In this document: positions 9,770 to 61,128 of the stretch, piece after piece
Layout of the letters: each line of letters opens with the position of its first letter
Position numbering within the stretch: position 1 is the stretch's first letter
From: Leucoraja erinacea
Taxonomy: Eukaryota
Reading direction: 5' to 3'
DNA length: 64,000 nt
Assembly (NCBI RefSeq): GCF_028641065.1
Contig: NC_073389.1
Coordinates: forward strand, 41,726,001-41,790,000
Position numbers and translations under genes: made by a program
The notes under the pieces: model-generated
Told to the model about the DNA's origin: nothing
The model's database searches: none
What the model saw: the letters and a program-made list of their open reading frames with translations, nothing else

Positions 9770-9990
9770 ATTTCCCCCCCTCTACTTTCAGACTGAAGAA
9801 GGATCTCGACCCGAAACGTCACCTATATCTTTCGCTCCCTACATGCTGCCTCACCTGCTGATTTTCTCCAGCATTTTTGTCTACCTTCGATTTTCCAGCA
9901 TCTGCAGTTCCGTCTTAAACATTGAGTTACTCCAGCACTTTGTGTCTATCTTCGGTATATTACCAGCATCTGCAGTTCCTTTCTACACAA
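9770..9990 (+). mobile_element. Penelope-derived short repeat with hammerhead-like core
   Basis: ctgaaga-aggatctcgaccc-gaaacgtc at 9793-9820, followed by the same 3' sequence found downstream of the GIY-YIG frame at 50015-50139. Confidence 0.75.
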
Positions 9991-10434
9991 AGAAGTTCAA
10001 TACACATTTTAAAAAACTTTATAGAGTAAAGAAAATAGCAAAGCCCCAAATCCCTAGTGCAATCAAGGTGCAATAGTTTGGAGTTTGGTTGGAATTCGTA
10101 GTGTTCAATAGCCTGATGGCTGTTGAATACATGACCTACATGTTGACAAAACACGGGCTTTATGAGGTTGCGGGGTGTAGGTGATCCTCTCTTACCTTAT
10201 CCTCAGGTAGAGTCAAACTTGCTAGACCTCACAGAGTAACAACCTAGAGGACTGTTATGTTTATTAAAACTGCGAAAGTGCCACATATAAAACAAATACA
10301 AATGCTACAATTGATGCAACATTGTATATGAAATTGCTGCAGGTATAATGTAGAATAATATTGTGATTATACACTAACATACTTCTATACCTTAAACAAC
10401 TGTAACTTTTAAGTCTAACCTAAGACATCTAGCA

Positions 10435-10592
10435 GTGAGTATATAAATCGAGCGCGGGGCTTGCTTTTACAGAGGCCCGGGACCGTTGCAGAGAGTGGAG
10501 GAGGGTCAGGGCTGTGAGTATATAAATCGAGCGCGGGGCTTGCTTTTACAGAGGCCCGGGACCGTTGGAGCGAGTGGAGGAGGGTCAGGGCT
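10435..10592 (+). repeat. Two tandem 79-bp monomers, each with TATATAAA (putative LINE promoter)
   Basis: gtgagtatataaatcgagcgcgggg...ggtcagggct at 10435 and 10514, nearly identical. Confidence 0.85.
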
Positions 10593-10702
10593 TACCAAAA
10601 TCTGTAACGTTCCACACTTCATAGGGAGGGTTCTGGTGGAAGCAGACTAAAGGAAGCAGCTGATTGGGTGCAACCTCAGGATAGCATTTCTGCATTCTGG
10701 TT

Positions 10703-10935
10703 AAAGGTACAGTGAGCCAAGGGTACAGTGAGCTAAGGGTACAGTGCTTTAGTAAAGGTACAGTGCTTTAGTAAAGGTACAGTGAGCTAAGGGTACAGTG
10801 CTTTAGCTAAAGGTACAGTGCTTTAGTAAAGGTACAGTGAGCTAAGGGTACAGTGAGCTAAGGGTACAGTGCTTTAGTAAAGGTACAGTGAGCTAAGGGT
10901 ACAGTGCTTTTTGTTTATATAATAAAGGTACAGTT
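10703..10935 (+). repeat. Minisatellite with 13 GGTACAGT cores in 16-bp and 19-bp unit variants
   Basis: Units aa(a/g)ggtacagtgagct and aa(a/g)ggtacagtgctttagt interspersed. Confidence 0.9.
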
Positions 10936-11039
10936 TAAAGGTCAAGAGGGAGCAGCTGTTGTGAGTCAGATACCTGCTGATTTCTCCCAGTAGTTTCTAT
11001 TGTTTTATACTTGTATCGGATCCAGGGTAAGGTGGGAGA

Positions 11040-11972
11040 ATGACAGCCAGAGCAGTGTACTGTTCGGGATGTCAGATGTGGGAGGTCATGGTGTCGGATG
11101 GCCCTCCAGACGTCCACATCTGCACCAGGTGCAGCGAGATGGGGCTCCTAAGGGACTGTATTAGGATCCTGGAGCAGCAGCTCGATGACCTCTGTCTGGT
11201 CAGGGAGAGTGAGGAGGTCATAGAGGGGAGTTATAGGGAGGTGGTCACTCCAAAACCACGGGAGAGAGACATGTGGGTCCCGCTAAGGAAGGGCAAGGGG
11301 CAGAGGCAGGGACGAGTCGGTACAATGTCGGTACACCTTGCAAATAAGTACTCCTGTTTGAGTACGGATGGGGGTGACAGCCTGCCCGGGGATAGCGATA
11401 GCGGACGGGCCTCCAGCACAGAGACCGGCCCTGTTACTCCTGAAGGTAGGGACGAAAAGAAGAGGGCAATAGTAATTGGGGACTCTATTGTTAGGGGGTC
11501 GAATAGGCGATTCTGTGGACGCAGTCGGGAGACCAGGATGGTGGTCTGCCTCCCTGGTGCCAAGGTCTCGGACGTGTCTCAATGCATCCAAGATATCCTG
11601 AAATCAGAGGGAGAGGAGCCTGAGGTCGTGGTACATATAGGTACCAATGACATAGGAAAAAAAAGGGAAGAGGTCCTGAAGGGAGTATTTAGGGAGTTGG
11701 GAGGAGAGTTAAGGAAAAGGACCAAAAAGGTAACAATCTCAGGATTACTGCCTGTGCCACGCGACAGTGAGAGTAGGAATGGGGCGAGGTGGAGGATAAA
11801 TGCGTGGCTGAAAGACTGGTGCAGAGGGCAGGGATTCAAGTTTCTGGATCATTGGGACTTCTTTTGGGGAAGGTTAGACCTGTACAGAAATGATGGGTTG
11901 CACTTGAACCCGAGGGGGACCAATATCCTGGCGGAGAAATTTGCAAAGGCTACTGGGGAGACTTTAAACTAG
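11040..11972 (+). CDS. CR1 ORF1p: C4 zinc finger, coiled coil and SGNH esterase domain
   Basis: CSGC..CTRC; heptad leucines; SGNH blocks VIGDSIVR, LPGA, HIGTND, DGLH; uninterrupted 310 aa. Confidence 0.92.
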   Translation: MTARAVYCSGCQMWEVMVSDGPPDVHICTRCSEMGLLRDCIRILEQQLDDLCLVRESEEVIEGSYREVVTPKPRERDMWVPLRKGKGQRQGRVGTMSVHLANKYSCLSTDGGDSLPGDSDSGRASSTETGPVTPEGRDEKKRAIVIGDSIVRGSNRRFCGRSRETRMVVCLPGAKVSDVSQCIQDILKSEGEEPEVVVHIGTNDIGKKREEVLKGVFRELGGELRKRTKKVTISGLLPVPRDSESRNGARWRINAWLKDWCRGQGFKFLDHWDFFWGRLDLYRNDGLHLNPRGTNILAEKFAKATGETLN

Positions 11973-12107
11973 AATGGTTGGGGCGAGGGACTCAAATAGA
12001 GAAAGCTAGTAGACAGAATGGGAGGCAGGAAGTAGAAAAGGGAAGCACTCGGGCACGAGGAGAAAGAAAAAAAAGGAAATAAACAGAGAATAAGAGGCGG
12101 GGGGTTT

Positions 12108-14901
12108 CTTAAATGTGCATATTTTAATGCTAGGAGCATTGTAAGAAAGGTGGATGAGCTTAGAGTCTGGATAGACACCTGGAAGTATGATGTTGTGGCG
12201 ATCAGTGAAACATGGTTGCAGGAGGGCTGTGATCGGAAACTAAATATTCCAGGATTTCGTTGCTTCAGGTGTGATAGAATTGGAGGGGCAAGAGGTGGAG
12301 GTGTTGCATTACTAGTCAGGGAAGATATTACAGCAGTGCTTTGGCAGGATAGATTGGAGGGCTCATCTAGGGAGGCTATTTGGGTGGAACTGAGAAGTGG
12401 GAAAGGGGTAGCAACACTTATAGGGGTGTATTATAGACCGCCAAATGGGGATCGAGAATTGGAAGAGCAAATATGTAAGGAGATAGCAGATATTCGTAGT
12501 AAGCACAAAGTAGTGATTGTGGGAGATTTCAACTTTCCACACATAGACTGGGAAACACATTCGGTAAATTGTCTGGATGGTTGGAGTTTGTAAAATGTGT
12601 GCAGGATAGTTTTTTGCAGCAATACATAGAGGTACCTACTAGAGGAGGGGCAGTGTTGGACCTCCTGTTAGGAAATGAGACGGGACAGGTGGCGGAGGTA
12701 TGCGTTGGGGAGCACTTCGGGTCCAGTGATCACAATACCATTAGTTTCAATATAATTATGGAGAGGACCTAGGGTTGAGATTATTGATTGGAGAAGGGCT
12801 AACTTTGATGAGATGCGAAATGATTTAAAAGGAGTGAACTGGGACATTTTGTTTTATGGGAAGGATGTAGAAGAGAAATGGAGGACATTTAAAGGGGAAA
12901 TTTTAAGCGTACAGAATCTTTATGTTCCTGTTCGGTTGAAAGGAAATAGTAAAAAGTGGACAGAGCCCTGGTTTTCAAGGGAAATTGGACATCTTGTTCG
13001 GAAAAAGAGGGAGATCTACTATAATTATAGGCAGCATGAAGTAAATGAGGTGATTGAGGAGTATAAGGAATGTAAAAAGAATCTTAAGAAAGAAATTAGA
13101 AAAGCTAAAAGAAGACATGAGGTTGCTTTGGCAAGTAAGGTGAAAGTAAATCCAAAGGGTTTCTACAGCTATATTAATAGCAAAAGGATAACGAGGGGTA
13201 AAATTGGTCCATTGGAGAGAAAGAGTGGACAGCTATCTGCAGAGCCAAAAGAGATGGGGGAGATATTGAACAATTTCTTTTCGTCGGTATTCACCAAGGA
13301 GAAGGATATTGAATTATGTGAGGTAAGTGAAACTAGTAGAGGAGCTATGGATACTATGAGTTTCAAAGTAAAAGAAGTACTGACACTTTTGAAAAATCTA
13401 AAAGTGGATAAGTCTCCATGTCCTGACAGGATATTCCCTAGGACATTGAGGGAAGTTAGTGTAGAAATAGTCGGGGCTATGACAGAAATATTTCAAATGT
13501 CATTAGAAACGGGAATCGTCCCCGAGGATTGGCGTACTGCGCATGTTGTTCCATTATTTAAAAAGGGTTTTAAGAGTAAACCTAGCAATTACAGGCCTGT
13601 TAGTTTGACTTCAGTGGTGGGCAAATTAATGGAAAAGATACTTAGAGATAATATATATAAGCATCTGGATAAACAGGGTCTGATTAGGAACAGTCAGCAT
13701 GGATTTGTGCCTGGAAGGTCATGTTTGACTAATCTTCTTGAATTTTTTGAAGAGGTTACTAGGGAAATTGACGAGGGTAAAGCAGTGGATGTTGTCTATA
13801 TGGACTTTAGTAAGGCCTTTGACAAGGTTCCTCATGGAAGGTTGGTTAAGAAGGTTCAACTGTTGGGTATAAATGCAGGAGTAGCAAGATGGATTCAACA
13901 GTGGCTGAATGGGAGAAGCCAGAGGGTAATGGTGGATGGTTGTTTGTCGGGTTGGAGGCAGGTGACTAGTGGGGTGCCTCGGGGATCGGTTGGGTCCTTT
14001 GTTGTTTGTCATGTACATCAATGATTTGGATGAAGGTGTGGTAAATTGGATTAGTAAGTATGCAGATGATACCAAGATAGGGGGTGTTGTGGATAATGAA
14101 GAGGATTTCCAAAGTCTACAGAGTGATTTAGGCCATTTGGAAGAATGGGCTGTAAGATGGCAGATGGAGTTTAATGCTGATAAATGTGAGGTGCTACACC
14201 TTGGCAGGACAAATCAAAATAGGACGTACATGGTAAATGGTAGGGAATTGAAGAATACAGTTGAACAGAGGAATCTGGGAATAACCGTGCATAGTTCCTT
14301 GAAGGTGGAATCTCATATAGATAGGGTGGTAAAGAAAGATTTTGGTATGCCAGCCTTTATAAATCAGAGCATTGAGTATAGAAGCTGGGATGTAATGTTA
14401 AAATTGTACAAGGCATTGGTGAGACCAAATCTGGAGTATGGTGTACAATTTCGGTCGCCCAATTATAGGAAGGATGTCAACAAAATAGAGAGAGTACAGA
14501 GGAGATTTACTAGAATGTTGCCTGGGTTTCAACAACTAAGTTACAGAGATAAGTTGAATAAGTTAGGTCTTTATTCTCTGGAGCGCAGAAGGTTAAGGGG
14601 GGACTTGATAGAGGTCTTTAAAATAATGAGAGGGATAGACAGAGTTGATGTGGATCAGCTTTTCCCTTTGAGAATAGGGAAGATTCAAACAAGAGGACAT
14701 GACTTCAGAATTAAGGGACAGAAGTTTAGGGGTAACATGAGGGGGAACTTCTTTACTCAGAGAGTGGTAGCGGTGTGGAATGAGCTTCCAGTGGAAGTGG
14801 TGGAGGCAGGTTCGTTGGTATCATTTAAAATTAAATTGGATAGGCATATGTATGAGAAGGGAATGGAGGGTTATGGTATGAGTGCAGGCAGGTGGGAATA
14901 A
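12108..14901 (+). pseudogene. CR1 ORF2 (APE endonuclease + reverse transcriptase) with three frameshifts
   Basis: FNARSI, SETW, GDFNFP, SSDH; NYRPVSLTS, YMDFSKAFDKV, YADD at ~14058; frame breaks near 12580, 12768 and 13990. Confidence 0.95.
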
Positions 14902-18194: not shown

Positions 18195-18362
18195 CCAGAG
18201 GTTTCCATTCAGGTTTCTTAAGTGGGACAGGGGCATAAGGAAACCTGAACGGAAACCTCTGGAGACTTTGTTCCCCACCCAAGGTTTCCGTGCGGTTCCC
18301 AGAGGTTCCCGGAGATTTTTGTCAGTCTCCCTAATGGTTCGAAAGTGGTTTCCGCTTCTTCT
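18195..18362. mobile_element. Rearranged PIF/Harbinger-type MITE (same family as 40636-40861)
   Basis: Right TIR agtgggacaggggca-TAA followed by left-arm sequence ggaaacctgaacggaaacctctggagactttg. Confidence 0.7.
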
Positions 18363-19019
18363 ATAGACCCTTCTTTAGACCCAACTCAGCCTGAAGAAGG
18401 GTCTCGTCACGAAATGTCGCCTATTCTTCTTCTCCAGACCTGTCTGAGCCGTTTAGTTACTCCAGCATTTTTTATCACTCTTGATTCTTAACTCTTGATA
18501 ATCAGTCCATCCCTTGCTTAAAATGCCAGCCACCCTTAAGTAAGAGATCTTTTCAAACTGGACTTGATGCTGAAGTGTTGACTTATGAGCGTTATTCGTG
18601 GGAACTTGCGAAACATAATCCAGACCCTAAATCGGATACATTTGTAAATTCAAACAGTGTTTCTGATGATAGGCGGTTAAAAACAATGGGAACTGGCGTT
18701 TAAACCCTAATGCCAAACATCTGAATAAATATTAAGGGGAAAATATTCTTCCTCCATTCTTCAGCTTTCTGCATGGGAATTTTGCATGCGTCAATTCTAC
18801 TTTGGGAAATAAATGCTCTATGATTAATGAGTGTTACGCGATGCATTGAGAGAGTCCTTCCCACAGGCACCACTCAGCCCGTGACCCATGACAGGAGTGA
18901 AAGTTACTGAGTGGTTGGCACAGTAAAGCCTTTGTAAAATTTGCTGCTTTAGGTCTGTGTGTTATGGAGCTTTTTGCATTTTATACATTTCAAGAAGTTG
19001 GAAAGGCATTTAAAAGAAA

Positions 19020-19815
19020 CATAGAGAATATAGAGTACAGGAACATAACCTTCAGCCCATCATGCCGAACTAACCTAATCTCATCCACATGCATGTGGTC
19101 CATATCCCTCTATTATTTGCCCATTCGTGTATCTGACTAATTGTCTCATAAATATTGTTATTGTATCTCTTTTTACCACCTCACCTAGCAGTGTGTTCCA
19201 GGCACCTTTTACTCTCTGGTCTGAAGAAAGGTCTCAATCCGAAACGTCACCCATTCCTTCTCTCCAGAGATGCTGCCTGTCTCGCTGAGTTACTACAGCA
19301 TTTTATGTCTATCTTCGATTTAAACCAGCATCTGCAGTTCATTCCTACACCTTTTACTCTCTGTTTTATAAAAAAAACTTGCCTTGCATATCTCACTTAC
19401 ACTATCTTCCTCTCACCCTAAACCTATGCCCTCTGGTATTTGCCATTTCCACCCTCGGAAATATAAACACTTATCTATGCCTTTCATAATTGTATATGCT
19501 TCTATCAGGTTGCCCCTCAGCCCCCAACACTCCAGAGAAAACAATCCAAGTTTGTCGTAACATCACTTTGTAGCTAATATACTCCAATCCAGGCAACTTC
19601 CTGGTGAAGGTCGACACAAAAAGCTGGAGTAACTCAGCGGGACAGGCAGCATCTCTGGAGAGAAGGAATGGGTGACGTTTCGGGTCGAGACCCTACTTCA
19701 GTCTGAGTTACTCCAGCTTTTTGTGGCTATATTCGGTTTCAACCAGCATCTGCAGTTCCTTCTTACACAAACTCCCTGGTGAATCTCTTCTGCACCATCT
19801 CCAAAGCCTCCACAC
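19020..19815 (-). mobile_element. Old CR1 3' fragment interrupted by two Penelope-derived repeats (19218-19348 and 19608-19770)
   Basis: LINE sequence resumes after each insert; caccttttactctctg is duplicated around the first insert. Confidence 0.7.
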
Positions 19816-20491
19816 CCTTAGTCCAGCTCACTTTTAAAATAAAAGCAGTAAATGCTGCAAATTCGCACCAGGTTAGACAGCATCTGTGGAGAGAAAAACA
19901 GCGTTAATGTTCAAGTTGATAATAACCTATTATCAGAATGGATCTTTCAGATGAAAGATTGTGAATCTGAAACTTTCCTTCTCTCCATGTTCCATAGATA
20001 CTCTGAGTTGCTGCATATTTCTTCCGCTTTCAAATTTTATCTCAGCTTTTCAGCATCTGTTTTTTGTTGCTTTTAGCTCACTTTTGATGTGCAGTCATTG
20101 GATTAGTAAACACAATAAGCAGTATACACCAACTCCAAATGGATAATAGTCATGAGATTTTCTGCGTCTTCCACTAAAATTACTAAGACAACCCATCAGG
20201 GAAATTTATTTCTGTCAGAGACACAAGGCACTGCAGATGCTGGAATCTGAAGCAAAGAACGATGTGCTGGAGGAACAATGGGTTAGGCAACACCTGGGAA
20301 GGGAATGGACAGGCAACATTTTGGGTTAGGACTGTTCTTCAAACTGATTGACTATTCAGGCTATTTCTGACTGAATTGGCTGATAAAAGAATGTTAGAAA
20401 GAGCTCATTCACCCTTTTCAAGTAGATCACATGACTGTACTGAATTTCCTGAGTGAACAAATAGGTCTGGTTTAAGATTGCATCAGAACCA

Positions 20492-21290: not shown

Positions 21291-21898
21291 TGAAATTCTC
21301 CCCACAAGCCGCTGATTAGGAGTTGGGATAATTAATCATCAGATGGAATGAACACTATGCAGAGTAAATTTTTACAATTCTTTAATCCTGGTGGTTTTAC
21401 TCCTCTCCTGCGCATTATAGTATCGCGAGCCTTCCCTCACCCGCCTGATTTATCTGTGAATCAACCCCTCCTTACCTAAATCCACTAATCACTTGTCAGC
21501 TCTGGTTCCGTCCATTTCCCTCACCTCGTTCTAACAGGTTATGTTCGTTCGCTCCATCAGCCTGAAGGAGGGTCCAGACCCAAAATCTCATCTGTCCATT
21601 TCTCTCCATCGAGGCTGCCTGACCTGCTGAGTTCCTCCAGTAATCAGCTTTTTTTTACTGTTGTCCAGGTCACAGGGTCGTACAGTGTAGAAACAGGCCA
21701 TTCAGCCCAACTTGCCCACAACCTGCCTCCGTTTTGGCCTTTTCCCTCTAAACCTGTCCTATCCATGTTCCTGTCCAAATGTTTCTTATACTATATATAC
21801 TCCATGCCTCAGGGCTTGCTCTTCATGCGAAAGGGCATCTTCATGAACTGAGAAATGGCAAATTGGACATGACGTTATCTATTGATCAGTGAAACAAA

Positions 21899-28159: not shown

Positions 28160-28465
28160 GGGCAGCACCGTGGTGCAGCAGTGGTGTTGCGGCCTTACCC
28201 AGAGACCCGGGTTCGATCCTGACTACGGGTGCTGTCTGTACAGAGTTTGTACGTACACCCCGTCGTGACTTGGTGGGTTTTCTCCGGGATCTCCGGTTTC
28301 CTTCCACACTCTGAAGATGTACGTGTTTGTAGGTTAATTGGCGTGGTATAATTGCAGTGTATAGGATAGTGTGTGTAGGATAGTGAAAGTGTGTGGGGAT
28401 CGCTGGTTGGTGTGGATCTGGTGGGCCGCAAGGCGTGTTTCTGCGCTGAATCTCTAAACTTAACT
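28160..28465 (+). mobile_element. V-SINE (HE1-like)
   Basis: gtggtgcagcagtgg A-box, ggttcgatcc B-box, V-domain. Confidence 0.87.
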
Positions 28466-29467
28466 CCAAAAAAACGAAACAGTCCAAACGTGCTGAGTAA
28501 GTGATATCACCTTGTTATTATCAGCGTCACTGTCCATGATCATTAGGTTGCCAACTCTCCCAGACTGTCCCTGAATCTAGGTGGATGAGGAGCTAGTCCT
28601 TGGGATGCCGTCGTGAACAACTTGGAAGCTAAATCACAGGATGTGCAACAAAAAGTGTCTCTTTGCAGTCAGAAATAATGACATGAAATTATGGATAATG
28701 CACCTGCTGAGTTATGCCAGCACTTTGTGGCCTCTTGTGTAAATCAGAATCTGCAGTTCTTTGTTTCTACATTTATCTCATAGTTGTGTGTGTAAGCTTG
28801 CTCCCTACTTCCTACACTCCCTACAACAGCTGTGCTTTAGCACTATTTCAGAACAGGAAGTTACCCTATAAATGGAATTTCATTATTTAGGATCAGGGTT
28901 CCAAACATTAAAGGGAAATTTGTGAGCATTCAGCCATTGATAATGGAAATGGATAAAGGAATACGCAGCAAGTTATATTCAAGGAGACATGGGTTATACG
29001 CTGGGACAGTAGGTGGGGAATACAGGCTCTTAGAAGAGAGTGAGGGTTTTACAATGCATTTTAAAGTTGGAGGCAAATGTGGGTTGGCAGGAACTGAGGT
29101 GACAAGATCCAGCAAGGGATTTGTGTGGCACTGATCTGTAAGCAAACATTTGGCATTGGTGTCCAAGCCTGAATGTGTATTAAGAATGCCTTAATTTATG
29201 AATGGATACTTCTGGCAAGCAACCTTTCCCATTGGAAGCACCAAACAGAAATCACATGCAAGCTTCCTGTGGTTCTTGGCTCAGTGGAGTTTGTCCTGTA
29301 AAATTGCCTGGAGAGAGTGTATACACAGTAGTTCAAATTGCCAGACATAGTCTGAGCTTGAATAGCGATGGCACCAACCAGGAAGGTAGTGCCAGCATAG
29401 CAAAAACATGCATGCACGAGATGAAATGGGCGAACCTTTCAACTGCAGACTCTTCATCGCAACTGAA

Positions 29468-39104: not shown

Positions 39105-39310
39105 AACAAGGAACTGCAGATGCTGGTTCACAAAAGAAGACACAATGCACTATAGTACCACAGCGGGTCAGGCACCATCCCTGGAGAACATGGATAGGTG
39201 ATGTTTAGGGTCAGGGCCCTTCTTCGGGATCTTGCCCCTGAAGCATTACCTATCCAAATTCTCCAGAGATGTGGCCTGACCCGCTGAGTTACTCCACCAC
39301 TTTGTGTTTT
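39105..39310. mobile_element. Penelope-derived repeat, inverted pair
   Basis: gcgggtcaggcaccatccctggagaacatggataggtgatg mirrored by cattacctatccaaattctccagagatgtggcctgacccgc. Confidence 0.7.
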
Positions 39311-40861: not shown

Positions 40862-41104
40862 TAACTCAGCGGAATAGGCAGCATCTCCGCAATGAAGGAA
40901 TGGATGACGTTTTGGGCTGAGACCCTTCTTCAGTAGAAGGGTCTCGACCTGAAACGTCACCCACTCTTTCACTACAGAGATGCGGCCTGTCCCACTGAGT
41001 TACTCCAGCATTTTGTGCCTTACCTTCGGTGTAAACCAGCATCTGAAGTTCCTTCCTACACAAATAAAAGAAAGAGTTGTATCCAAAAGAAAAGAGAAAA
41101 ATAC

Positions 41105-41560: not shown

Positions 41561-42864
41561 CACTAGTTTAGTTTAGTTTAGTTTATTATGTACTGAGGTA
41601 CAGTGAAAAGCTTTTTGTTGCATCCTATCCAGTCAAGAAAAGATTATACATGATTACAATCAAGTGCACATATACAAGATAAAGGACCGACTGAAGACTA
41701 GCATATCCTTTATTAAATAAGAGGGTCAAACTGTGCACAATTCTCTTGGTGTGGTCTTGCACAATTGTAACAATACAACACTATTTCCAAAAGCTAATCA
41801 CGGTGCCATCAGTGCCATTCTATCACTTTCCTTCCTACTTCTGCATCTATTTGCTAACCATTTGTGATTCATGCACAAAAATGCCAGGTTCCCAATGTAC
41901 ATAACACAAAATACTTTGCCTTTAGATTCGTCTTACTGAAGCACATGATCTCATACTTTCTCATGTTAAACCTCATTTGTTAACTTTATGCACACTCACT
42001 CAATCTATGTACAATCAGTGGCAGAGTCTGCATTCTAAAGAAAGGTGTCGACCCAAATCATCAGCCATTCCTTCTCTCCAGAGATGCTGCATGTCCCACT
42101 GACCTGCTACAGCTTTTTGTGTCTATCTTCTGTTTAAACCAGCACCTGCAGTTCCTTCCTGCATATAAACTCTTTGCAATTTACCCTCAGGTCATTAATA
42201 TAAATAATAAATAATTGAAGGCAAAACATTGATACTTGGGGCACTCCATTATTTGTAGTGATATTGGACCCATTAGTTATAGTTTTTCAAAATGCATTGA
42301 GTTTGAGAAGGTTCCGATGGATTGGAAATCCACAAGTATGACGCCCATATTGGAAAAGCAAGAGAAATGAAATGCTATGTTAGTTATATGTCTTTTGTTC
42401 ACAAATTGCCAGAGTCTGCAATCAAGGAAGCATTCACTAATTATTGGTAAAAGATCAATGCAAGCAGAAGTTCACAGGTTCTTGTAGCAGAATTTGGCCA
42501 TATAAAAGGCGGGTGCTCGAGATAGGAACTCAAGGAATTGGATCAGCATGGTTTGAAGGCTCATTATCACACAGAATCGGAATAATGGACAAAATCGGAA
42601 TCGGAGTCTTTCATATCTTAAAATAAAAATACATATATTATTTTTTTCTTTATTACTATAGCCATCCACTATTTGTCACTGCTAGCATTTCTTAAAACTA
42701 CCCACTGACATTGTTTAAACTATATTGTTGTATCAAACACTGAAGCACTGAAATAGTACAATTTTCATATCTGCACCTGCAGTCTCATGTGCCTCCAGTC
42801 TCATGTGCCTCCAGTTTTCTCAGGTGTGTTGTGATTGTTGTTGTTTTAAACTTTAGAATACTAT

Positions 42865-43645: not shown

Positions 43646-43966
43646 AGGGCGGCACAGTGGCACAGCAGTAGAGTTGCTGCTTTGCAGCGCCAGAGACCCC
43701 GGTTCGATCCTGCTACGGGTGCTGTCATATGTCTGAATGAGAACTAAGTTTGTATGTTCTCCCCGTGACCGTGTGAGTTTTCTCCGGGTGCTCCAGTTTC
43801 CTCCCACACTCCAAAGACGTACAGGTTTGTAGGTTAATTGGCTTCGGTAAAACATTGTAAATTTTACCTCACGTGTAGGATAGTGCTCGTGTATGGGGAT
43901 CGCTGGTCGGCGGAGACTTGGTGGGCCGAAGGGCCGGTTTCCATGCCGTACCTCTAAACTAACCTA
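43646..43966 (+). mobile_element. V-SINE (HE1-like)
   Basis: Full head, core and tail. Confidence 0.88.
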
Positions 43967-44670: not shown

Positions 44671-46071
44671 CCTTTGCATAAATGTAGCGGTAAAATACTT
44701 CACTTTGCGTGGCTTTTTGATCAACGGAGAGAAAAAGTAACCGTGATTTTATTTTGTGTTGTGAACAGTAAGTTATAGAATGGGTTGCATTGACAATGAC
44801 TAATGCTCTTTACCGTTTAATAAGCCAAGTGGCAGCAATAAGCTTGAGTATCTTCACAGGTCAATTCATGTTTATGAACATAAAATAGAAGACAAGTTCA
44901 AGGATCTGAGCCTCTTGCATTGATTGACCTTACGAGTGGTCTCAGGGGGGTGAGCATCTGCTCCACAGCTGTCCAACAGTCGCTTGGTGATATTGAGATT
45001 TCCTTTGCCGATTTCCTGCTATTTAACCTGTTGCCGTATTTCCTGTTGGTCTGATTAGTCGGGCTCCGGACTGCAAGGTGCATCTCTTTGGTGCACCGGA
45101 AGAGTTATTCAGATGAGATAGTTCAAATTCGGGGCATTTTTCATTGTAACAGTTATACAGGTAGGTGGGCCAAAATGGAAAGTTATTTTTAAATGACAAA
45201 CATGCATAGGTAAAGTTGTAGGGAAAATAAATAACACATTACCACACATGTGAGGGATATGGCCACATGATATATTTATGAAAAAATGCAGTACCATCTT
45301 GTCTCAAAGTCTGAAGTAATTTGGAAGCACATAAAGGGTGGTAGGCGTATGGAACAAGCTGCCAGAGGAAGGAACTGCAGATGCTGGTTTAAACCAAAGA
45401 TAGACACAAAAAGCTGGACTAACTTAAAGGTTAGCATCTCTGGAGAGAAGGAATGGGTGACGTTTCGGATCGAGACCTTTCTTCAGAATTCAGAATCTAT
45501 GTTGTACATAGATTGAGTGAGTGGGCAAAAAGTTAACAAATGAGGTTCAGCATGAGAAAATGCGAGATCATGTGCTTCAGTAAGACTGAAGAAGGGCAAG
45601 TTAGGCCGAAGGGCCTGTTTCCACGCTGTATCACTCTATAACTCTATGACTCTAAGCACTATTTGCCTGTCGTAATTAACAATATGTTATTGTTCATAAT
45701 TGTTATTATTTTGAGATCGATTCTGAGTTCATGAAATCGCTCTTAAACAAGTTAGAATAAAAAACAGGAATGCACGGGAACATTCTTTTCAAAATTGCTA
45801 TCCTCTCAATTTTATCTTCTCGGCATCAGGATATGCTGCCTGATGCCATGACATGCTTGCCTTGTTCTGCACACACAGGTGGATTGAAGATCACCACTCT
45901 CACACTGAATAATTCCTAGTCTCACTCCAGGAGGTCCTTAAAAGGAAGTAGGCAACATAAATTTGCACTGAAACCAGGAAACGTGGAGAGGGTGAATAGC
46001 TGAATGTTGGATAATTACAACAGATAGCTCACACTGCGCACCATTTAACTATTCAGACTTATCTCGAGTAC

Positions 46072-48383
46072 ATGTCTGTAAGATGCCAGCCTTTTTTTCT
46101 ACCGAGAGAACTAACAGTCGTGATTGTCACGGCTGTGTATATTCCACCTGACGCCAATGTAAACAAGGCGCTCTCTCTCCTGCTGAACACCATTAACGAT
46201 CAGCAGCGGGACCACCCCGAAGGTGTTCACATAATCGCAGGGGACTTTAATATGGCCAACTTGAAGACTGTACTGCCGAAATTCTATCAACATGTCAAGT
46301 GTTCTACTAGAGGGGTGAACACGCTGGATCATGTCTACACCAATATCAAGCCCGCGTATAGAGCCATCCCCCTCCCCCAACTCGGCCAGTCAGATCATCT
46401 CTCCCTCCTGCTCTCTCCAGACGCAGTGCCAGGCCCACCATAAGATCTGTTACAACCTGGCCTGAAAATGCACTCTCCAATCTACAGGACTGCTTTACAC
46501 AGACAAACTGGGACATATTCGAACACCAGGATCTGGAAACTCTCACAGAATCGGTGCTGGACTATATCAAGTTCTGCATCGGAAATGTGACTGTAGACAA
46601 AAACATACGGGTTTTCCCAAACCAGAAACCCTGGATGTCCAGCCAGGTCCGCACACTCCTCAGAGCCCGCGATGCTGCCTTCAGGTCAGGTGACAGAGCT
46701 CTGTACAGGGCTGCTCGAGCCGATCTGAAAAGTGGTATTAAAAAAGCCAAGGCGGACCATAAGAGGAGCATAGAGTCCCACTTGTCCAGCAATAATACAC
46801 GGGAGGTATGGCGGGGCATACAAGACATTACCAACTACAGAGGCTGTGCCACAAAGTCAGAAGACCTGAGTGCGCCGCTGGCAGAAAAGCTAAATTGCTT
46901 CTTCTCCCGCTTTGAAACATCACAACAGCAGCACTCACCTGCTACAGCCCTGTTCCCACCCTCACCTAGCTCCTGTACTACCCCACTCACTGTCAGGGAG
47001 CACGATGTCAGACGGGTGCTCCTGGCAGTGAACCCCAAGAAGGCTACCGGCCCAGATGGAGTACCTGGTAAGGTGCTCAAAGCGTGCGCCCACCAGCTCA
47101 CTGCCATCTTCACCAGAATTTTCAACCTCTCCCTGGACCAGGCAGTTATTCCGTCCTGCCTAAAATCAGCCACAATCATCCCTGTGCCGAAGAAGTCTCC
47201 CATCACCAGCCTTAATGACTACGGTCCTGTGGCCCTCACTCCGATAATCACGAAGTGCTTCGAGAGATTGGTCCTCCAGCACATCAAGGTCTATCTACCA
47301 CCAGACTTCAACCCCCACCAATTCGCATATCGCCAAAACAGATCCACAGAAGACGCCATTACCGTAGCTCTCCACTCTGTGCTGAGCCATCTGGAGCAGG
47401 GGCAGAGCTACGTCCGGATGCTCTTTGTGGATTTTAGCTCAGCTTTTAATACAATCATTCCGGACATTCTCATTGGTAAACTGGTCACTCTCGGCCTCCC
47501 CACTCTCACATGTGCCTGGATAAAGGATTTCCTCACCAACCGGCCCCAGACTGTGAGACTCGGCCCCCACCTCTCCTCCACTCGCAGGTTGAGTACCGGT
47601 TCCCCACAGGGCTGTGTGCTAAGCCCCCTCTTATACTGTCTCTACACCCACGACTGTAGTCCGGCCCACAACAACAACCGCATCGTCAAATTTGCTGACG
47701 ACACTACTGTAGTCGGACTTATTTCAAAGGGAGACGAGGCAGCCTACAGAGAGGAAGTCCTCAAGTTGACAACCTGGTGCACAGAAAACAATCTGGCTCT
47801 GAACACCAGGAAAACAAAAGAGCTCATTGTCGACTTCAGGAGGCACAGCACCGACTTAGCCCCCCTACACATCAACGGCGAGTGTGTGGAGAGGGTCAAC
47901 ACCTTCCGGTTTCTCGGCGTCCATATCGCTGCTGACATCTCCTGGACGGACAACACGACAGCGGTCATCAAGAAGGCTCAGCAGCGGCTGCACTTCCTGA
48001 GGGTCCTCAGGAAGCACAACCTGGACTCTAACCTGCTGCTGACCTTCTACCGCTCGTCCATCGAGAGCCTGCTGACATACTGCATTACAGCATGATATGG
48101 CAGCTGCACCATGGCAGACAGGGAGAGGCTTCAGAGGGTAACTAGGACAGCGCAGAGGATCATTGGCTGCCCTCTCCCCTCCCTGATGGACATCTACACC
48201 TCCCGCTGCCTTAGCAGGGCAAAGAAGATCACCAAAGACAGCTCCCATCCTGCGTTTGGACTGTTCGACCTGCTGCCCTCTGGAAGGCGCTATAGGTGCA
48301 TCAAATCCAGGACAAATAGACTCAGAAATAGTTGCTTTCCGAGAATTATAACTACTATTAATTCTAATTCACACATGCACTGA
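46072..48383 (+). pseudogene. Rex1/Babar APE-RT polyprotein, disrupted
   Basis: PVALTPIITKCFERLV, LFVDFSSAFNTI, GSPQGCVLSP, KFADD; frameshift near 46420 and TGA at 48093-48095. Confidence 0.92.
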
Positions 48384-49436: not shown

Positions 49437-49591
49437 ATGTATAGTGACAATAAATGGCATATCATCTGAGGTTGTATTTAATGTAGCTCATACTGTCAGT
49501 GTCTTTCTACTTCATTTGTTAAACAGTATTTACTTAAACTATGAAAGTATTTGGATTGTTCAAATATGTAAAATTGATAACATATTTGGAA

Positions 49592-50139
49592 GGTACACAA
49601 AAATACTGGAGAAACTCAGTGGGTGCAGCAGCTGACATCTGATCTACATCGGTGAGACTAAGCGGAGGTTGGGCGATCGTTTCGCCGAACACCTCCGCTC
49701 AGTCCACTAGAACCTACCTGACCTCCCGGTGGCTCAGCACTTCAACTCCCCCTCCCATTCCCAACCCAACCTCTCTGTCCTGGGTCTCCTCCATTGCCAG
49801 AGTGAGCAACACCGGAAATTGGAGGAACAGCACCTCATATTCCGCTTGGGGAGCCTGCATCCGTCGGGCATGAACATTGAATTCTCCCAATTTTGTTAGC
49901 CCTTGCTGTCTCCTCCCCTTCCTTAGCCCTCGAGCTGTCTCCTCCCATCCCCCAGCCCTCGGGCTCCTCCTCCTCCTTTTTTTCCCTTCCTTCTCCCTGC
50001 CATCCCTTATTAGTCTGAAGAAGGGTTTCGGCCCGAAACGTTACCTATTTCCTTCGCTCCATAGATGCTGCTGCACCTGCTGAGTTTCTCCAGCATTTTT
50101 GTGTACCTTTGATTTTCCAGCATCTGCAGTTCCTTATTG
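49592..50139 (+). mobile_element. Penelope-like element 3' part (GIY-YIG endonuclease, pseudo-LTR, inverted 5' stub)
   Basis: IYIGETKRRLGDRFAEHLRS..VAQHFNSPSHS..EQHLIFRLGSLHPSGMNIEF; aacatatttggaa duplicated at 49579-49591 and 50140-50152. Confidence 0.88.
50011..50050 (+). ncRNA. Minimal hammerhead-ribozyme-like motif in the Penelope pseudo-LTR (representative copy)
   Basis: CUGAAGA, stem II (A-GGGU-UUCG-GCCC), GAAAC-GUU; stem I is weak. Confidence 0.55.
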
Positions 50140-50171
50140 AACATATTTGGAATCTAGTTTCTTTTTTTGTG

Positions 50172-50410
50172 GTTTAAAGATACAGCATGGAAACATACCC
50201 TTCGACCCTACGAGTCCGCACCGACCAGTGATCCCCACACATTAACGCTACCCTAGACACACTAGGGACAATTTTACATTTTACACCAAGCCAATTTACC
50301 TATAAAACTGTACGTCTTTGGAGTGTGGAAGGAAACCGAAGATCTTGGAGAAAACCCACACAGATCATGGGGAGGATGTACACATTCCGTAGTCAGTCGT
50401 AGTCAGGATG
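50172..50410 (-). mobile_element. V-SINE, head truncated
   Basis: Tail and V-domain. Confidence 0.82.
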
Positions 50411-52579: not shown

Positions 52580-52890
52580 GGGCGGCATGGTGGCACAGCA
52601 GTAGAGTTGCTGCTGTACTGCACCAGAGACCCGGGTTAGATCCTGACTACGGATGCTTGTGTCTACGGCGTTTGTACGTGACCTGCATGGGTTTTCTCCG
52701 CGATCTTCGGTTTCCTCTCACACTCCAAGGACATACAGGTTTTTAGGTTAATTGGCTTGGTATGGATGTAAATTGACCTCAGTGTGTGTAGGATCGTGTT
52801 AATGTGCGGGGATCGCTGGTCGGTGCAGACTCAGCGGGCCGAAGGGCATGTTTCCGCGCTCTATTTCTAAACTTAACTAGACTAAACTAA
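52580..52890 (+). mobile_element. V-SINE (HE1-like)
   Basis: Head, core and tail. Confidence 0.87.
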
Positions 52891-53639
52891 AATGAGTCAG
52901 TTATCCCGGCCTTGAATTTGGGAACAGAAATGTAATCTGGAGGTAAATAAACAATTAAAGTAGCTGTAGAATTTCAATGGCATCGACATTCTTGCCAATT
53001 GTTCAAAATTTCTGATCCAAGCATAACGTTTCAGTACAAAATTCCAATCCCAGCATAAATTGTCCACTAATCATCTAGTTCTGGATTGTGTCCACTCTAA
53101 ATGGAGGCAGTCCACTGCCAATCTCCACCCAAAACTGCAGCACGTTTCAGAAATTTAATCGCCTCTTAGATTATGTTTTTGTCACATGTTTTCTGTTAGT
53201 TTTGTTTCAACTGAATTACTGAGCAACTAATTAAATGGCCTGTGTTCCAAATGTTTCCTAATTAGCTCTTAATATCAGCATTTTACAGAAATCCTCCAAG
53301 CTTAATCCTGATTGAAGCTACTTTCGGTAAGCTATTTAGTAGCATTCAACTGTGATGAAGATGCCAGCTCTTTGAAGGACCATTAATTGATCTGTGTTCT
53401 CTCCTTTAGCCTGCACAAACTCTCAAAGGTCTGATGGTTATAAATATCTGTCCCCATTGCCAGCACATAAGAGGGCAATTACAATAATAGAAACATATTA
53501 ATGCTGGAAATGCTCAGTAGATCCTTTGCAATGTCTGCCCGTGCCCTGCCCTTTATAAGAACACCATTACATTCTCTCAATGCCTCCAGCGCTGTTGTAT
53601 TTGTTCTGATGTAATTACAGGCGCTGATGTGCAAAATAG

Positions 53640-54105
53640 GACACATAGTGTTAAAGTAACTCAGCGGGCCAGGCAGCATCTCTGGAGATCATGGATAGGT
53701 GACACTTTGGGTCGGGACCCTTATTCAGACTGATTGTGTGTGAGAGGGGGGGGGGGGTGGGGGGGGGGTGGGGGTTTGGGGAGGCGGGGGGGGGGGAGGT
53801 AGGGGGCGGGGGGATGAAAGCTTGGCGAGAGGGGAGGCAGTACAGAACAGGGTTTGGTGATAGCTAAGACACAGGTGAGGCGGGGAGAATTGGTTGGCAG
53901 ATGGTTTGAACAAAGGCCGGAGGAAATAGGCCAGTGACAGAAAACACTGGAGTAACGCAACGGGTCAGGCAGCATCCCTGGAGAACATGGGTGACGTTTC
54001 CGGTCACAACCCATTTTCGGACTGTCCCGACCTGAAACGTCATCTATCCATATTCTCCAGCGATGCTGCCTGATCCACTGAGTTTCTCCACCATTTTGTG
54101 TCTTG
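53640..54105 (-). mobile_element. Penelope-derived repeats (tandem plus inverted) with a G-run tract at 53744-53814
   Basis: Three copies of the pseudo-LTR arm around a purine-rich spacer. Confidence 0.7.
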
Positions 54106-54577: not shown

Positions 54578-54710
54578 CAGTCTGAAGAAGGGTCTCTACC
54601 CGAAACATCACCCATTCCTTCACTCCAGAGATGCTGCCTGTCCCGCTAAGTTACTCCAGCATTTTGTGCCTATCTTTGATTTAAACCAGTATCTGCAGTT
54701 TCTTCTGACA
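54578..54710 (+). mobile_element. Penelope-derived short repeat with hammerhead-like core
   Basis: ctgaagaagggtctctacccgaaacatc; aggcatca duplicated at both ends. Confidence 0.75.
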
Positions 54711-55594: not shown

Positions 55595-55855
55595 ACAGCC
55601 ACAGGAGATGTAACACTGTCCCTGCTCCTACACCTCCATTCAGGGACCCCATAACTCTTTCCAGGTGAGACAGAGGTTCACATTATCTACTACAGCTGCT
55701 GTTCCCAATGTGGCCTCTTATACATTGGCGAGACCAAGCATAGTTTTCTCCATTGCCAGGGTGAGGCCACATGCACACTGGAGGAATAGCATGTCATATA
55801 CCACTTGGATAGTGTACAAATCAATGGTATGATCATTGAATTCTCCAATTGTAGG
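55595..55855 (+). mobile_element. Degraded Penelope GIY-YIG fragment
   Basis: IYYSCCSQCGLLYIGETK..IEFSNC. Confidence 0.7.
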
Positions 55856-57245: not shown

Positions 57246-57825
57246 TAAACTAAAAACTAAACTGAAATTATTTATTAGTTCCAATAATTATGGTTGGGGT
57301 TAAATATTGTTGGATAACATTTCTATGAAACATCATGGTAAATGTTTTGAAGTTAAACTTGCTTCATAAATTAAAGTAGTTTTTATTCTCTTTGTCTTTC
57401 CCGGGGCCACATCTGTGCACCATCAGTAGCTGCAGCATGACTGATGGAAACCTGCTGAATTACAGTGCAGGAGGCTCCAGATGGATTTGGAGGGTCATCT
57501 TCAGCATCTCTGGGCACTGAAAAACACGATGAAAAGTGCTGGAATAACTCAGCAGGTCAGGTCGCATCTCTGGAGAACATGGATAGGTGAACCTCTTAGC
57601 CCACTTGAATACACAGCCATTGTGCATGGCAGTCTGTGCTCCCACTTCTCTGTTACAGTTTAGGCAGCAGTGGAGACTGCAATGTTGTGGGACACTTAAT
57701 GGCGCAAATAGTGTTGGCCACTTCTTTGACATGAGAAAAATTGGCTCCACGTTCTTGCCAAGTTACTGAGGGATTGCTTCATGATCTTAACACTGGACAA
57801 GTGACAATAATTGGCAAATTGACGC

Positions 57826-58022
57826 AACAGTAGAGTTGCTCCTTAGTTCTCCCTGTGACCATGTGGGTTTTCTCCGGGTGCTCTGGTTTCCTCCCACACT
57901 CCAAAGACGTACAGGTTTGTAGGTTAATTGGCCCTAGAGTGTAGGATAGTAGTGTTAGTGTACGGGGCGATCACTGGTCGGCGCAGATTCGGTGGGCCGA
58001 AGGGCCTGTTTCCGCGCTGTAT
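57826..58022 (+). mobile_element. V-SINE, internally deleted
   Basis: V-domain and tail. Confidence 0.8.
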
Positions 58023-58574
58023 TGTGCTAATTGTCCAAATTAGTTTTAAAGGATGCTTTAAGGTGGGTGGGATTAGGAAGAGAAAGTAGAGAGGAAGAGA
58101 TGTTTATGGAGGAAATTCCAGATGTTATAGTCTTGGCAACAAAGGTCATGGCAGTCAGATGCAGGATAATTAGGGTGTTTAATTGTCATATGTACTGACA
58201 ATGGAACATTATAATCAGGGGTGATCAAAACCAGTGAAGTGCAGATGGAGATGATTGCAGGTAATGAAGTGGAGTTATTTAAATTCAGGCCCATTTAATT
58301 GCGACCCATTAATGTTCAGCAAGTATAGGAATGTTAGAAAGCAGAGCCATGTGTTGGCTGATCTTCAGTTAATGGAGCAACGATCAGGGGAGGCCAGTCA
58401 AGTCTGCTTTGGAGCAGCCAGGTCTGGAGATTGCCTTGGCAATCACTCATTTCTAGACTGGAAAATATTTACAATCTTTTCCAAGTCAATATTGCCACAG
58501 CATCCTCACAGATCCCTGAGAATCTCTGACTTGACAGCTCAAGATGGAGAAAGAGCATTTGAGATGAGAAGATA

Positions 58575-59133
58575 ATAGGAACAGAATAGGTCAAGGCCCA
58601 TTAACTCTGCAATTCAATACATGGTTAATCTATTTTTCTCCCATTCACCTGCCTTCTCTATGTAATCTTTGATGCCCTTACTAATCAAGAACCCAACAAT
58701 CTCTGCTTTAAAACTGCTCAATGTCTTGGCATCTCTAGCAATGAATTCTAATGATTCATCATCTGCTGGCTAAAGAAATTCCACCTCATCTCCATTCTAA
58801 AGGTATGTCCTTTTATTCTGAGGCTGTCTTCTAGATTCTAGGTTCTAGATTCTCCCACTAGTGGAAACATCCTCTCTACCCCCACCATCTGGCCTTTCAT
58901 TATTAGGTAAGTTTCAATTAGGTTCCCCAGCATCCTTCAAGACTCCAGCAGGTATATACGCTAAGAGCCATCAAATAAATGCTCATCATATGTTAACCCA
59001 ATCATCCCTGGGATCATTCTTGCAAACCTCCGCTGGACCCTCTTCAATGCCAGCACATCCTTCCTCAGATATAGGGCGCAAAACATCTCACGGCTTTCCA
59101 AATGTGGTCTCACCAGTGCCTTATAAAGCCTTT
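58575..59133 (-). mobile_element. CR1 RT C-terminal/3' fragment
   Basis: LYKALVRPHLES..LRKDVLALKRVQRRFARMIPGM. Confidence 0.85.
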
Positions 59134-60055
59134 TGAAATTAATGCTCGCATTGCATTTGGTTCCTAAAGGGCCTGTCCCACTTGGGCCGTCAATTACGCG
59201 ACAGGCCGGTAGTGACTGACGCACAATGGTCGCGCGCGCCATCATGCGTCCGCACAGCTGTCTGGAGCGCGTGACGTCATTTGAAGATGGACAAAAAATG
59301 CAGGAGTAACTCAGCTGGACCGGCAGCATCTGTGGAGAGAAGGAATGGATGATGTTTCGGGTTGAAACTCTTCTTCAGTCTGAATTACCTCTTTCATGCC
59401 ACAGATAAGATACAAAGTACTGCAGTAACTCAATGGGTTAGGCAGCATCTCTGGAGAAAATGGATGGTTGATATTTCAGGTCGGGACCCTTCTTTAGATC
59501 ATAAACCAGCATTTGCAGTTCTTTGTTTCTACCTCTTTCATGTCCCCTTCCCAGAGGTATTGCCACATACACTTACTTTTACACCTCATTCAGTTATTCC
59601 ATTATTGTACTTTAATTTTCTTTGACGTACTTCAGATTGCATTACAATCTTGCACCGCCCTACTCTTTGCACTCATCGTTGTATACAGTTTTGTATTTAT
59701 CATTACTGTATGTATACAGTGAGCTTCATGTGAACAAGGAATTTCATTGCACCTTGGTGTACATGACAATAATCTAATCTAAAACTGAATCTGAGATGCT
59801 CATAAAAATGGACAGTGGATCCATGAGAACAAACACCAACTGACTGCTCAGTTCAATTCTTCCTGATTGAAAAGTAAGAGCAAACTTTAACAAAGGATCA
59901 TGAAACAACAATCTGTCATTACTGGGGAAGGAAAATATGACAAAGAACAAAGATTAAAGAACAAAAAATGACGAGCATTCTAAATTATACATCAGAGTCG
60001 GCTTTTTATTGATGTTGCTATTCAACTCACTAGGGCAGAGTCTGTGCTGACTTAA

Positions 60056-60715
60056 AGGATATAAAGGAGCTGAAGGAATGCTTTGTGGTCTGTTTCACAG
60101 AGACATGGCCCACCCCCAGCTCCCCAGACTCAGACGTCCAGCCAGAAGGTTTTTCCATCCATCGCATGGACCGAACGCAGGCATCGGGGAAAGGGAGAGA
60201 CGGGGGCGTCTGCCTCATGGTCAACTCTTCATGGTGCTCAGACACGGCAGTCCTGTTTAGCTTCTGCTCTCCGCACCTGGAACATCTGGTGGTGAAGTGC
60301 CGCCACTTCTACCTCCAGAGGGAACTCACCTCCATCTTCCTGATCGTGGTCTACATCCCACCCCAGGCAGATGTCCGTCTAGCACTGGAGGAGCTGCACG
60401 CCGTGGTCAACAAGCACCAGTCAGTGTACCCCGAAGCCTTTACCACTATAGCCGGAGACTTCAACAAATCCAACCTGAAAAAATTACTCCTGAACTACCA
60501 CCAACATGTTTCCTGCAGCACCAGGGGGTGAAACACACTTGACCACTACATAGCGGCCATCAAAGATGCCTGTCGCTCCATCCCTCGCCCTCACTTCGGG
60601 AAATCCGACCATTCAGCGGTGCTGCTTTTTCCTGCACACAGACAGCAACTGAAGAGTGCACCTCCAGAGGTGAGGGCTGTACAGAGCTGGTCTGAGGAGG
60701 CAAAGGGACAACTAT
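60056..60715 (+). mobile_element. Rex1/Babar APE-domain fragment
   Basis: CFTETW, RMDRT, GGVCLMVN, VYIPPQAD, AGDFN, FGKSDH. Confidence 0.88.
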
Positions 60716-61128
60716 GAAAGGATGAGGACCCACAGTCCTGTGGAGAGAGTCAAAAACTTCAATTTCCAGGGCGTGCATCTTTCATAATTCTAAAGCAGGG
60801 TCTTGACCCCGAAACGTCACCCATTCCTTCTCTCTAGAGATGCTTCCCATTCCGCTGAGTTATTATAGCATTTTGTGTCGACCTTCGATTTAAACCAGCA
60901 TCTGCAGTTCTTTCCTACGCAGGCTATTAAACACTACAACCTTCAATTAAGTTCTGAACTCCATCGACCTGGGGGCATTGTTTTGTCTTTCCCCTATTGA
61001 TATGCTGAACGTTTTGTTGTTTATCATGGTGCTTCACGGTACTCGTTACATATCTGTTGTGCTGCCGCAAGTAAGATTTGCATTGTTCCGTTTTAGGCCA
61101 CATGACAAGACTCTTGACTGGACTCTAA

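Follow-up and report, generated by a model that had tools for sequence, protein, structure and literature searches.

The stretch of DNA analysed here, a window of 64,000 nucleotides from Leucoraja erinacea (NC_073389.1, positions 41,726,001 to 41,790,000, forward strand), is densely populated by a dispersed repeat of 95-135 nt that opens with a hammerhead ribozyme motif. There are 27 recognisable motifs in 64 kb, which bears out the very high local density claimed in a preliminary description made from the letters alone. One of them stands behind the end of a GIY-YIG endonuclease frame. Judged by its sequence, the repeat forms the pseudo-long-terminal-repeat (pseudo-LTR) end of a Penelope-like element (PLE); its copies are probably dead products of retrotransposition by a PLE of the Neptune type. 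We give this reading a probability of about 0.85. The motifs are the expected mark of a known type of transposon, not a new RNA system.

Positions in the repeat are counted from C3 of the hammerhead as +1. A regular-expression scan of the window for CTGANGA...GAAA finds 10 copies of the family; a profile hidden Markov model (HMM) built from the window copies finds 36 matches at E ≤ 1, versus 1 (E 0.91) in the reversed window. All 24 motif positions listed earlier, 11 on the plus and 13 on the minus strand (p = 0.84), lie within about 20 nt of a profile-HMM match, and the consensus proposed with them is the column majority of the 27 aligned copies. The repeat extends from about −2 to either +95 or +130. 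Alignment of 37 arm pieces to three reference copies gave 36 arms in 26 insertions. Over +1 to +89, 21 copies diverge from the column majority by 4.5-33% (median 15%); the family is therefore old and comprises several subfamilies. Exact motif scans of metagenome contigs and of viral contigs yielded 0 loci each. No paper on this family in skates or rays turned up in a literature search; the family may already be recorded in Repbase or Dfam, which lay outside that search.

The column majority of the 27 copies reads CUGAAGA, a single unpaired A, a stem II of 4-5 bp, GAAA, CGU and C17. It shows every position of the PLE-type type I core (C3 U4 G5 A6 N7 G8 A9 / G12 A13 A14 A15.1 / U16.1 H17). The unpaired base sits between A9 and 10.1, stem II is opened by G10.1-C11.1 and has at least 4 bp, and stem III is a palindromic ACGU (15.2-16.2) without loop 3. 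With this core, the ACGU and the endonuclease nearby, the earlier assignment to minimal type I hammerheads with palindromic stem III, as found in PLE pseudo-LTRs, holds. A complete core is kept in 10 of the 27 copies. Three pass a strict minimal-hammerhead descriptor (those at 9793, 50015 and 37170, the last via G-U wobbles only), all on the plus strand; 100 shuffled windows gave 1 match in total. Stem I has 2 inner pairs in 10 of the 22 copies scored and 3 bp in one. By these features 24 of the 27 copies, having lost key parts of the ribozyme, are likely inactive, as the caveat of the preliminary description about short stems I had anticipated.

An Rfam scan of the window shows no hammerhead family among 12 matches at E ≤ 1, which include microRNAs. 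The statement that stem II varies while keeping its pairing needs correction. Of its cells, 85% are paired across the 13 long copies, but this is not above shuffles, and the changes are one-sided wobbles only, with 0 two-sided ones. For none of the 4 copies tried, folded as monomer and as dimer, was the minimum free energy (MFE) structure a hammerhead. RNAalifold, applied to the 13 long copies, proposes one 8-bp helix of +48 to +55 with the tail; a two-sided change is found at 0 of its 8 pairs, and the helix is not counted as evidence of structure. The underlying 8-bp inverted repeat of body and tail is present, without covariation, in most long copies (e.g., 50012-50143); it is a candidate hairpin for binding of the reverse transcriptase (RT).

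The tie to PLEs is provided by the insertion at 49592-50143 (+), an inverted short arm plus a 5'-truncated PLE within a target-site duplication (TSD) of 13 of 13 nt (49579-49591 and 50140-50152). Between the two copies of the TSD follow each other the inverted arm (49590-49632, −; +53 to +95 of the element, short 3' end), the C-terminal part of a PLE GIY-YIG endonuclease (49636-49896, +; 5'-truncated, one in-frame stop), a pyrimidine-rich 3' untranslated region (UTR), a descriptor-passing minimal hammerhead of the UUCG-loop subfamily (50012-50044, +; predicted scissile bond after 50042) and a long tail. A gap of 118 nt separates the frame from the motif at 50015; the link of this copy, which had been described as lying directly behind a GIY-YIG frame, is real. 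A second, decayed GIY-YIG relic (55670-55855, +) has no hammerhead match beside it.

Pfam recognises 0 families in the endonuclease fragment itself. Its relatives are more telling. The best of 25 longer ones are two Leucoraja erinacea proteins with 89% and 73% identity and the whale shark protein P0003 with 62% (53/85, E 4e-37), which suggests a skate-like host. P0003 has Pfam matches to RVT_1 and GIY-YIG and a Cys linker; the RVT_1 matches in P0003 and in the homologue P0009 are weak. The linker, which precedes the endonuclease in P0002, P0003, P0009 and P0020, belongs to a region outside the window fragment. It is described as a mark of Neptune and Nematis (10.1101/2021.04.23.441226), and the vertebrate PLE clades named in the relevant part of a retrozyme preprint are Neptune and Poseidon (10.64898/2026.07.22.740005). 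For these two reasons Neptune is the likely clade of the element. The repeat, in turn, is assigned to the pseudo-LTR end since it follows a GIY-YIG C-terminus with a homologue that has the Neptune/Nematis-type linker. Fragments of the endonuclease also occur in skate and shark gene models (P0001, P0002, P0016, P0018 and P0025, among them neuromedin-U receptor 1, RTP3-like and a DCC isoform), by either exonisation or annotation error.

How the copies were inserted can be read from their ends. Direct repeats of 10-17 matches adjoin 9 of the 26 insertions; 1.8% of 1000 random intervals reach at least 10 matches, in a null that used 40-nt windows, the actual search having used 70-nt ones. Five of the 9 flank head-to-head pairs, and each pair is therefore one insertion event. 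There are two 3' ends, 34-35 nt apart, and one 5' boundary near −2; starts defined by TSDs (19221, 33558, 36383 and 54582) fall at −4 to −1. Of the 9 head-to-head pairs, all 7 that can be scored combine one long with one short arm, which would have a probability of 0.5^7 = 0.008 if the arms were independent. One arm reaches about +1 to −4 directly at the junction in 7 of the 9. Of 17 stand-alone copies, 14 retain all of the core that precedes the scissile bond, one starts at +27 to +30 and two further down; the template RNA was therefore uncut. Arm pieces that start near the cleavage site at +29 are rare (1-2 of 37), the usual start being some 30 nt upstream of the scissile bond.

After insertion the copies have decayed. 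The conservation test covers 22 of the 27 copies (left out were 4 arms cut short within the motif at a junction and 1 interrupted at +34). Changes affect 19 of 220 non-CpG core cells and 90 of 716 non-CpG cells of the flank (8.6% and 12.6%; Fisher p = 0.12), the latter figure being inflated by subfamily differences. The preliminary description had itself named core bases no better conserved than their flanks as an argument against its view, and the difference is indeed not significant. G12, which sits in a CpG, is changed in 7 of the 22 copies; the CpG at 15.2/16.2 is changed in 14 of 44 cells, that of the flank in 10 of 44. C-to-T and G-to-A changes predominate at the CpG sites, as is typical of methylation decay. 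A change of G10.1 to A, at a non-CpG site, is common to five copies (19221, 37600, 38373, 42035 and 45486) and may be the signature of a lineage of source copies whose ribozyme was already damaged when it spread.

These observations can be assembled into a mechanism. The RT-endonuclease of the PLE would nick both target strands 10-17 nt apart and begin reverse transcription internally on the RNA, either near +95 or near +130. Solo copies would arise when uncleaved RNA is copied back to a stop near −2. Extension of both target strands, each from a different site, would yield two cDNAs that likely join by microhomology and leave a head-to-head insertion; the self-complementary palindrome TCAG-N-CTGA could help in this joining. 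For the endonuclease frame to be included, as presumably at 49592-50143, the template would have to be read-through RNA. Any activity of the ribozyme would be confined to the source element, where it would act as a dimer or together with the PLE protein; the inserted copies would drift neutrally. Dimer cleavage of PLE hammerheads was reportedly seen by Luense, Weinberg and Breaker in 2016 (cited in PMC6765202). The stop near −2 may be the 5' end of the RNA, to which we give not quite an even chance: the sequence at the boundary, TCAGTCT, matches what we take to be the initiator consensus. D. virilis Penelope, moreover, has an internal promoter (PMC2377424). A stall of the RT at the pyrimidine tract is a plausible, if slightly weaker, candidate; the tract resembles a splice acceptor, and in D. 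virilis an intron ends at helix I (PMC4209133).

Most of these features have precedents, in so far as the pertinent sections of the following papers describe them. Cervera and De la Pena (2014, PMC4209133) reported minimal type I hammerheads in the pseudo-LTRs of metazoan PLEs, including Xena, Poseidon and Neptune of fishes; cartilaginous fishes are not named in those sections. Like ours, they have no stem III loop, a palindromic 15.2-16.2, an extra unpaired base between A9 and 10.1 and G10.1-C11.1, and they occur mostly as single dispersed copies from truncated PLEs, with some close pairs on opposite strands. A stem I of 2 bp, as seen here, is found in D. virilis, whereas Schistosoma has 4-5 bp. 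Their counts of about 4,000 (coelacanth) and about 9,000 (Xenopus) refer to entire genomes; ours, 27 motifs with 3 passing the descriptor, refers to 64 kb. The EN+ (endonuclease-containing) PLEs of the Neptune clade (Craig et al. 2021, 10.1101/2021.04.23.441226) share the C-terminal GIY-YIG, relatives with the Cys linker, the 5' truncation, the inverted 5'-truncated copy, a tail of 30-40 bp usually on one end, a variable TSD and the hammerhead in the pseudo-LTR. Unlike them, the window has no full-length copy, linker and RT are seen only in homologues, and most insertions consist of hammerhead and tail. The same PLE layout, with TSDs of 9-10 bp, was described by Arkhipova et al. (PMC3846280).

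A biochemical parallel is PAc, a Poseidon element of Anolis carolinensis (Frangieh et al. 2024, PMC11167929). In vitro, two internal RT start sites slightly more than 100 nt behind its hammerhead define the tail, both strands are extended and unprocessed RNA is the template; public reads show no RNA ends at its cleavage site, nor do those analysed here. PAc, however, belongs to the Penelope/Poseidon clade and was tested in vitro, whereas the skate element is of Neptune/Nematis type and known from sequence alone.

Reads from RNA and DNA runs were placed at 80% likeness on 49450-50300 (851 nt), the right end of which holds another repeat. The two RNA libraries, one bulk oligo-dT and one single-cell, were fragmented and poly(A)-selected; they were chosen by species label, a search of sequencing runs with the window having listed no RNA run. 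Reads placed amounted to 27,478 of 12.9 million in the bulk and 37,351 of 17.6 million in the single-cell run; 95% and 81% of them, respectively, continue into unlike sequence. In both RNA runs, family-wide loose read ends gather at 50012/50013, 50108/50109 and 50143, and the two DNA runs have such a cluster at 50012; the 5' pile at 50012/50013 could partly reflect divergence of the 3' UTR. A pile-up of RNA starts or ends, at the cleavage site or elsewhere, was not seen in either RNA run, which is weak evidence with fragmented poly(A) libraries. Minus-strand reads outnumber plus-strand reads over the motif by about 5:1 in the single-cell run, and since 6,082 of the minus-strand reads terminate in a run of T located upstream of it, the excess is likely due to oligo-dT priming. 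In one DNA run, summed depth was 21-26 million in the hammerhead-tail bins and 1.8-4.0 million in the GIY-YIG bins; this excess of about 6-10x is not a copy number. No empty-site joint is present among the 15 of 420 joints listed.

Several points count against the assignment to Neptune-type retrotransposition. No full-length PLE and no PLE RT is present in the window, and only 1 of the 26 insertions reaches the endonuclease frame. The link between the main subfamily and an autonomous partner consists of about 86% similarity to the copy at 50015 and of related GIY-YIG ends in DNA contigs. A clear TSD is missing at 17 of the 26 insertions, the TSD null was narrower than the search, as mentioned, and 2 of the 9 head-to-head pairs cannot be scored for arm length. 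The core is, after all, slightly better kept than the flank, non-significantly so, and 22 copies give such a test little power. RNA starts do not pile up at −2 in either RNA run, and the organism of these runs, which shares at best 0.62 of the words of the window, is perhaps another species.

The alternative that survives best does not dispute the PLE origin; it differs only in the source of the template RNA. The short copies would be a self-propagating, non-autonomous short interspersed element (SINE) driven by the PLE: a unit of 135 nt with its own start site and RT-priming signal, mobilised in trans. We regard this as possible, but only tentatively. The sharp 5' boundary at the initiator-like TCAGTCT would suit it, as would the excess depth of hammerhead-tail over GIY-YIG bins. 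The G10.1-to-A change in 5 of 22 copies would fit continued spread from a source whose ribozyme was damaged, and some 100 nt upstream of the repeat are common to the copies at 42035 and 45486. From the literature come the observation that in rotifers pseudo-LTRs are all that is needed in cis for mobilisation in trans (PMC3846280) and, again, the internal promoter of D. virilis Penelope (PMC2377424). But the reads placed on the family mostly run into unlike sequence and show no pile-up of starts; its RNA therefore looks like a passenger of other transcripts. Also, internal priming near the 5' end of an autonomous RNA would produce short copies without any separate family. A bolder version, namely 10^5-10^6 skate copies of a Penelope-driven SINE of 95-135 nt, equipped with start site, hammerhead and RT-priming signal, in which head-to-head insertions result from twin priming by a PLE dimer that uses the far site for one target strand and the near site for the other, strikes us as doubtful. 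If it were true, counting these fossil copies would by itself suffice to test how PLEs integrate and whether the ribozyme is dispensable.

The term "retrozyme-like", used in the preliminary description, implies something else: tandem units that are cut by paired hammerheads into monomers, circularised and reinserted. Non-LTR retrozymes are in fact similar in being non-coding, high-copy, related to PLEs and endowed with type I hammerheads (PMC7229834; 10.64898/2026.07.22.740005). The preprint proposes their descent from PLE pseudo-LTRs, counts up to 120,000 copies in the axolotl and gives an average of 363 bp for the families of the one chondrichthyan sampled. They are, however, head-to-tail tandems of 150-450 bp with canonical hammerheads, and they form circles, whereas the skate copies are dispersed or head-to-head, have a minimal ribozyme and are not bounded by the cleavage site; the stems and loops of canonical retrozyme hammerheads (PMC7229834) are absent here. 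The motif occurs in 0 of the 31 tandem arrays that Tandem Repeats Finder (TRF) reports for the window. A go-back joint from 50055 to 50012 is spanned by 3 RNA reads, yet it is also found in DNA contigs and therefore reflects genomic tandems, not circles. The copies at 59497 and 59378 lie on one strand, 119 nt apart, but both have damaged cores. The term is thus not supported, and a retrozyme origin is improbable. Short head-to-tail repeats (50042 or 50055 back to 50012-50024) do exist in a few DNA contigs; they would be the best natural candidates for dimers.

Even less probable is the suggestion, also made at the outset, that the copies cleave host pre-mRNAs, be it that they were kept or co-opted as cleavers or regulators in cis. 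Three copies pass the descriptor, all on the plus strand, poly(A) RNA is rich in reads of the family (the bulk reads cited above, placed on 851 nt that include another repeat), and the minus-strand bias over the motif is pronounced. That bias, however, is largely one of priming, the core decays like the flank, with G12 lost in 7 of 22 copies, and the motifs are distributed evenly between the strands. With a stem I of 2 bp, a stem III lacking its loop, no hammerhead in the MFE folds and no pile-up of RNA ends in two runs, cleavage is hardly to be expected. Minimal PLE hammerheads were inactive as monomers and weak as dimers (PMC4209133), and the one of the anole needs its protein (PMC11167929). 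A crude scan of the window for splice signals gave 25 candidates and no recognisable host exon. Finally, a mere coincidence of shape in an unrelated SINE, to which the missing Rfam match, the lack of compensatory change in stem II and the inactive MFE folds might be ascribed, is barely credible, since the consensus unites the entire core with the additional base behind A9, the G10.1-C11.1 pair and the palindrome ACGU, precisely where PLEs carry them, and 100 shuffled windows gave a single descriptor match.

As a ribozyme discovery the family is of small value: minimal hammerheads are nearly universal in PLE pseudo-LTRs, and most copies are broken. Its numbers are more unusual. About 27 motifs per 64 kb would put a genome of the size of a skate's far above the 4,000-9,000 reported elsewhere, although one window makes this extrapolation uncertain. 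The strict pairing of long and short arms inside one TSD connects the "tail" of PLEs with the two RT start sites seen in vitro, and suggests that each target strand uses a different one.

The remaining copies in the window are as follows. Solo copies on the plus strand are found at 9790-9988 (descriptor-passing, long tail, then a second, tail-only piece in direct tandem), 18388-18477 (short end, damaged stem II), 19217-19352 (long tail, TSD 17 of 18 nt, G10.1 to A), 21558-21642 (short end, damaged core), 36380-36477 (UUCG subfamily, short end, TSD 12 of 13 nt, damaged core), 54578-54710 (long tail, TSD 10 of 11 nt, decayed stem III CpG) and 60789-60918 (long tail, damaged core). A direct repeat near 60790 that matches in 10 of 11 nt is separated from the ends of the last by 21 and 7 nt and was not counted as a TSD. 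On the minus strand, solo copies occupy 20219-20346 (old, long tail, 33% from the column majority), 33466-33562 (short end, TSD 11 of 12 nt, decayed stem III CpG), 37505-37602 (short end, G10.1 to A) and 59283-59381 (short end, adjoining the TSD of the next insertion).

The head-to-head insertions differ in detail. At 19601-19773, a short minus arm with its hammerhead at 19701 faces a long plus arm that starts at +65 (TSD 13 of 14 nt), and in the old insertion at 19836-20069 a short minus arm faces a long plus arm, with a flanking 11-nt direct repeat. Both arms of the pair at 37020-37203 begin at about −3, the plus arm being cut at +34 by another repeat. A long minus arm is combined with a short plus arm at 38250-38458 and at 39103-39313. 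At 40603-41061 (TSD 13 of 14 nt) the short minus arm is split by a palindromic element (40634-40856) and the plus arm is long. The plus arm at 53936-54103 is short, the end class of its minus partner ambiguous. At 59400-59530, finally, a short minus arm with hammerhead is joined to a plus arm that is long tail only (TSD 14 of 15 nt).

Other pieces are incomplete or extended. A tail-only piece without hammerhead (28694-28771, +), a 5'-truncated piece without the first half of the core (38574-38648, +) and a piece with the short end that starts near the predicted cleavage site, at +27 to +30 (57520-57590, −), belong to the former. In front of the copy at 53613-53732 (−) lies a C-rich tract similar to the 3' UTR of the PLE. 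Two long-tail copies, 41930-42163 (+) and 45366-45590 (−), are those with the common upstream extension: 41930-42033 (+) and 45487-45590 (−), about 100 nt upstream of the hammerhead, agree in 92% over 85 nt and are more alike than the repeat bodies of the two copies. Beyond the shared stretch, the copy at 45486 shows an inverted hammerhead start. A 5' transduction, a longer subfamily and a local inverted duplication would all account for the sharing.

The repeat has a varied company of other transposons. A pol relic of an endogenous retrovirus (ERV) or LTR element (3473-5259, +) comprises three open stretches, the first with Pfam RVT_1 and a weak RNase H-like match, the later ones looking like RNase H and integrase by eye. 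A near-complete long interspersed element (LINE) at 11031-14901 (+), which we take to be of CR1/L2 type, has a first open reading frame (ORF1) with an SGNH/GDSL esterase and a frameshifted ORF2 for endonuclease and RT; many 3' fragments of related LINEs are spread over the window. A second type of LINE (46015-48095, +) has an RT followed by an ALKBH8_N-like C-terminal domain, and 60034-60531 (+) resembles, by eye, the endonuclease of this type. Palindromic elements with long inverted arms, similar to miniature inverted-repeat transposable elements (MITEs), lie at 40634-40856, about 18250-18330, 30369-30925 and 61129-61425. The first of them, presumably Harbinger-like, is inserted in the hammerhead-repeat arm at a TTA/TAA site. 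A further abundant SINE family, which in our estimation resembles the V-SINE/HE1 core, is represented at 28256-28342, 32209-32295, 33029-33115, 34090-34176, 43756-43842, 52670-52756 and 57846-57932.

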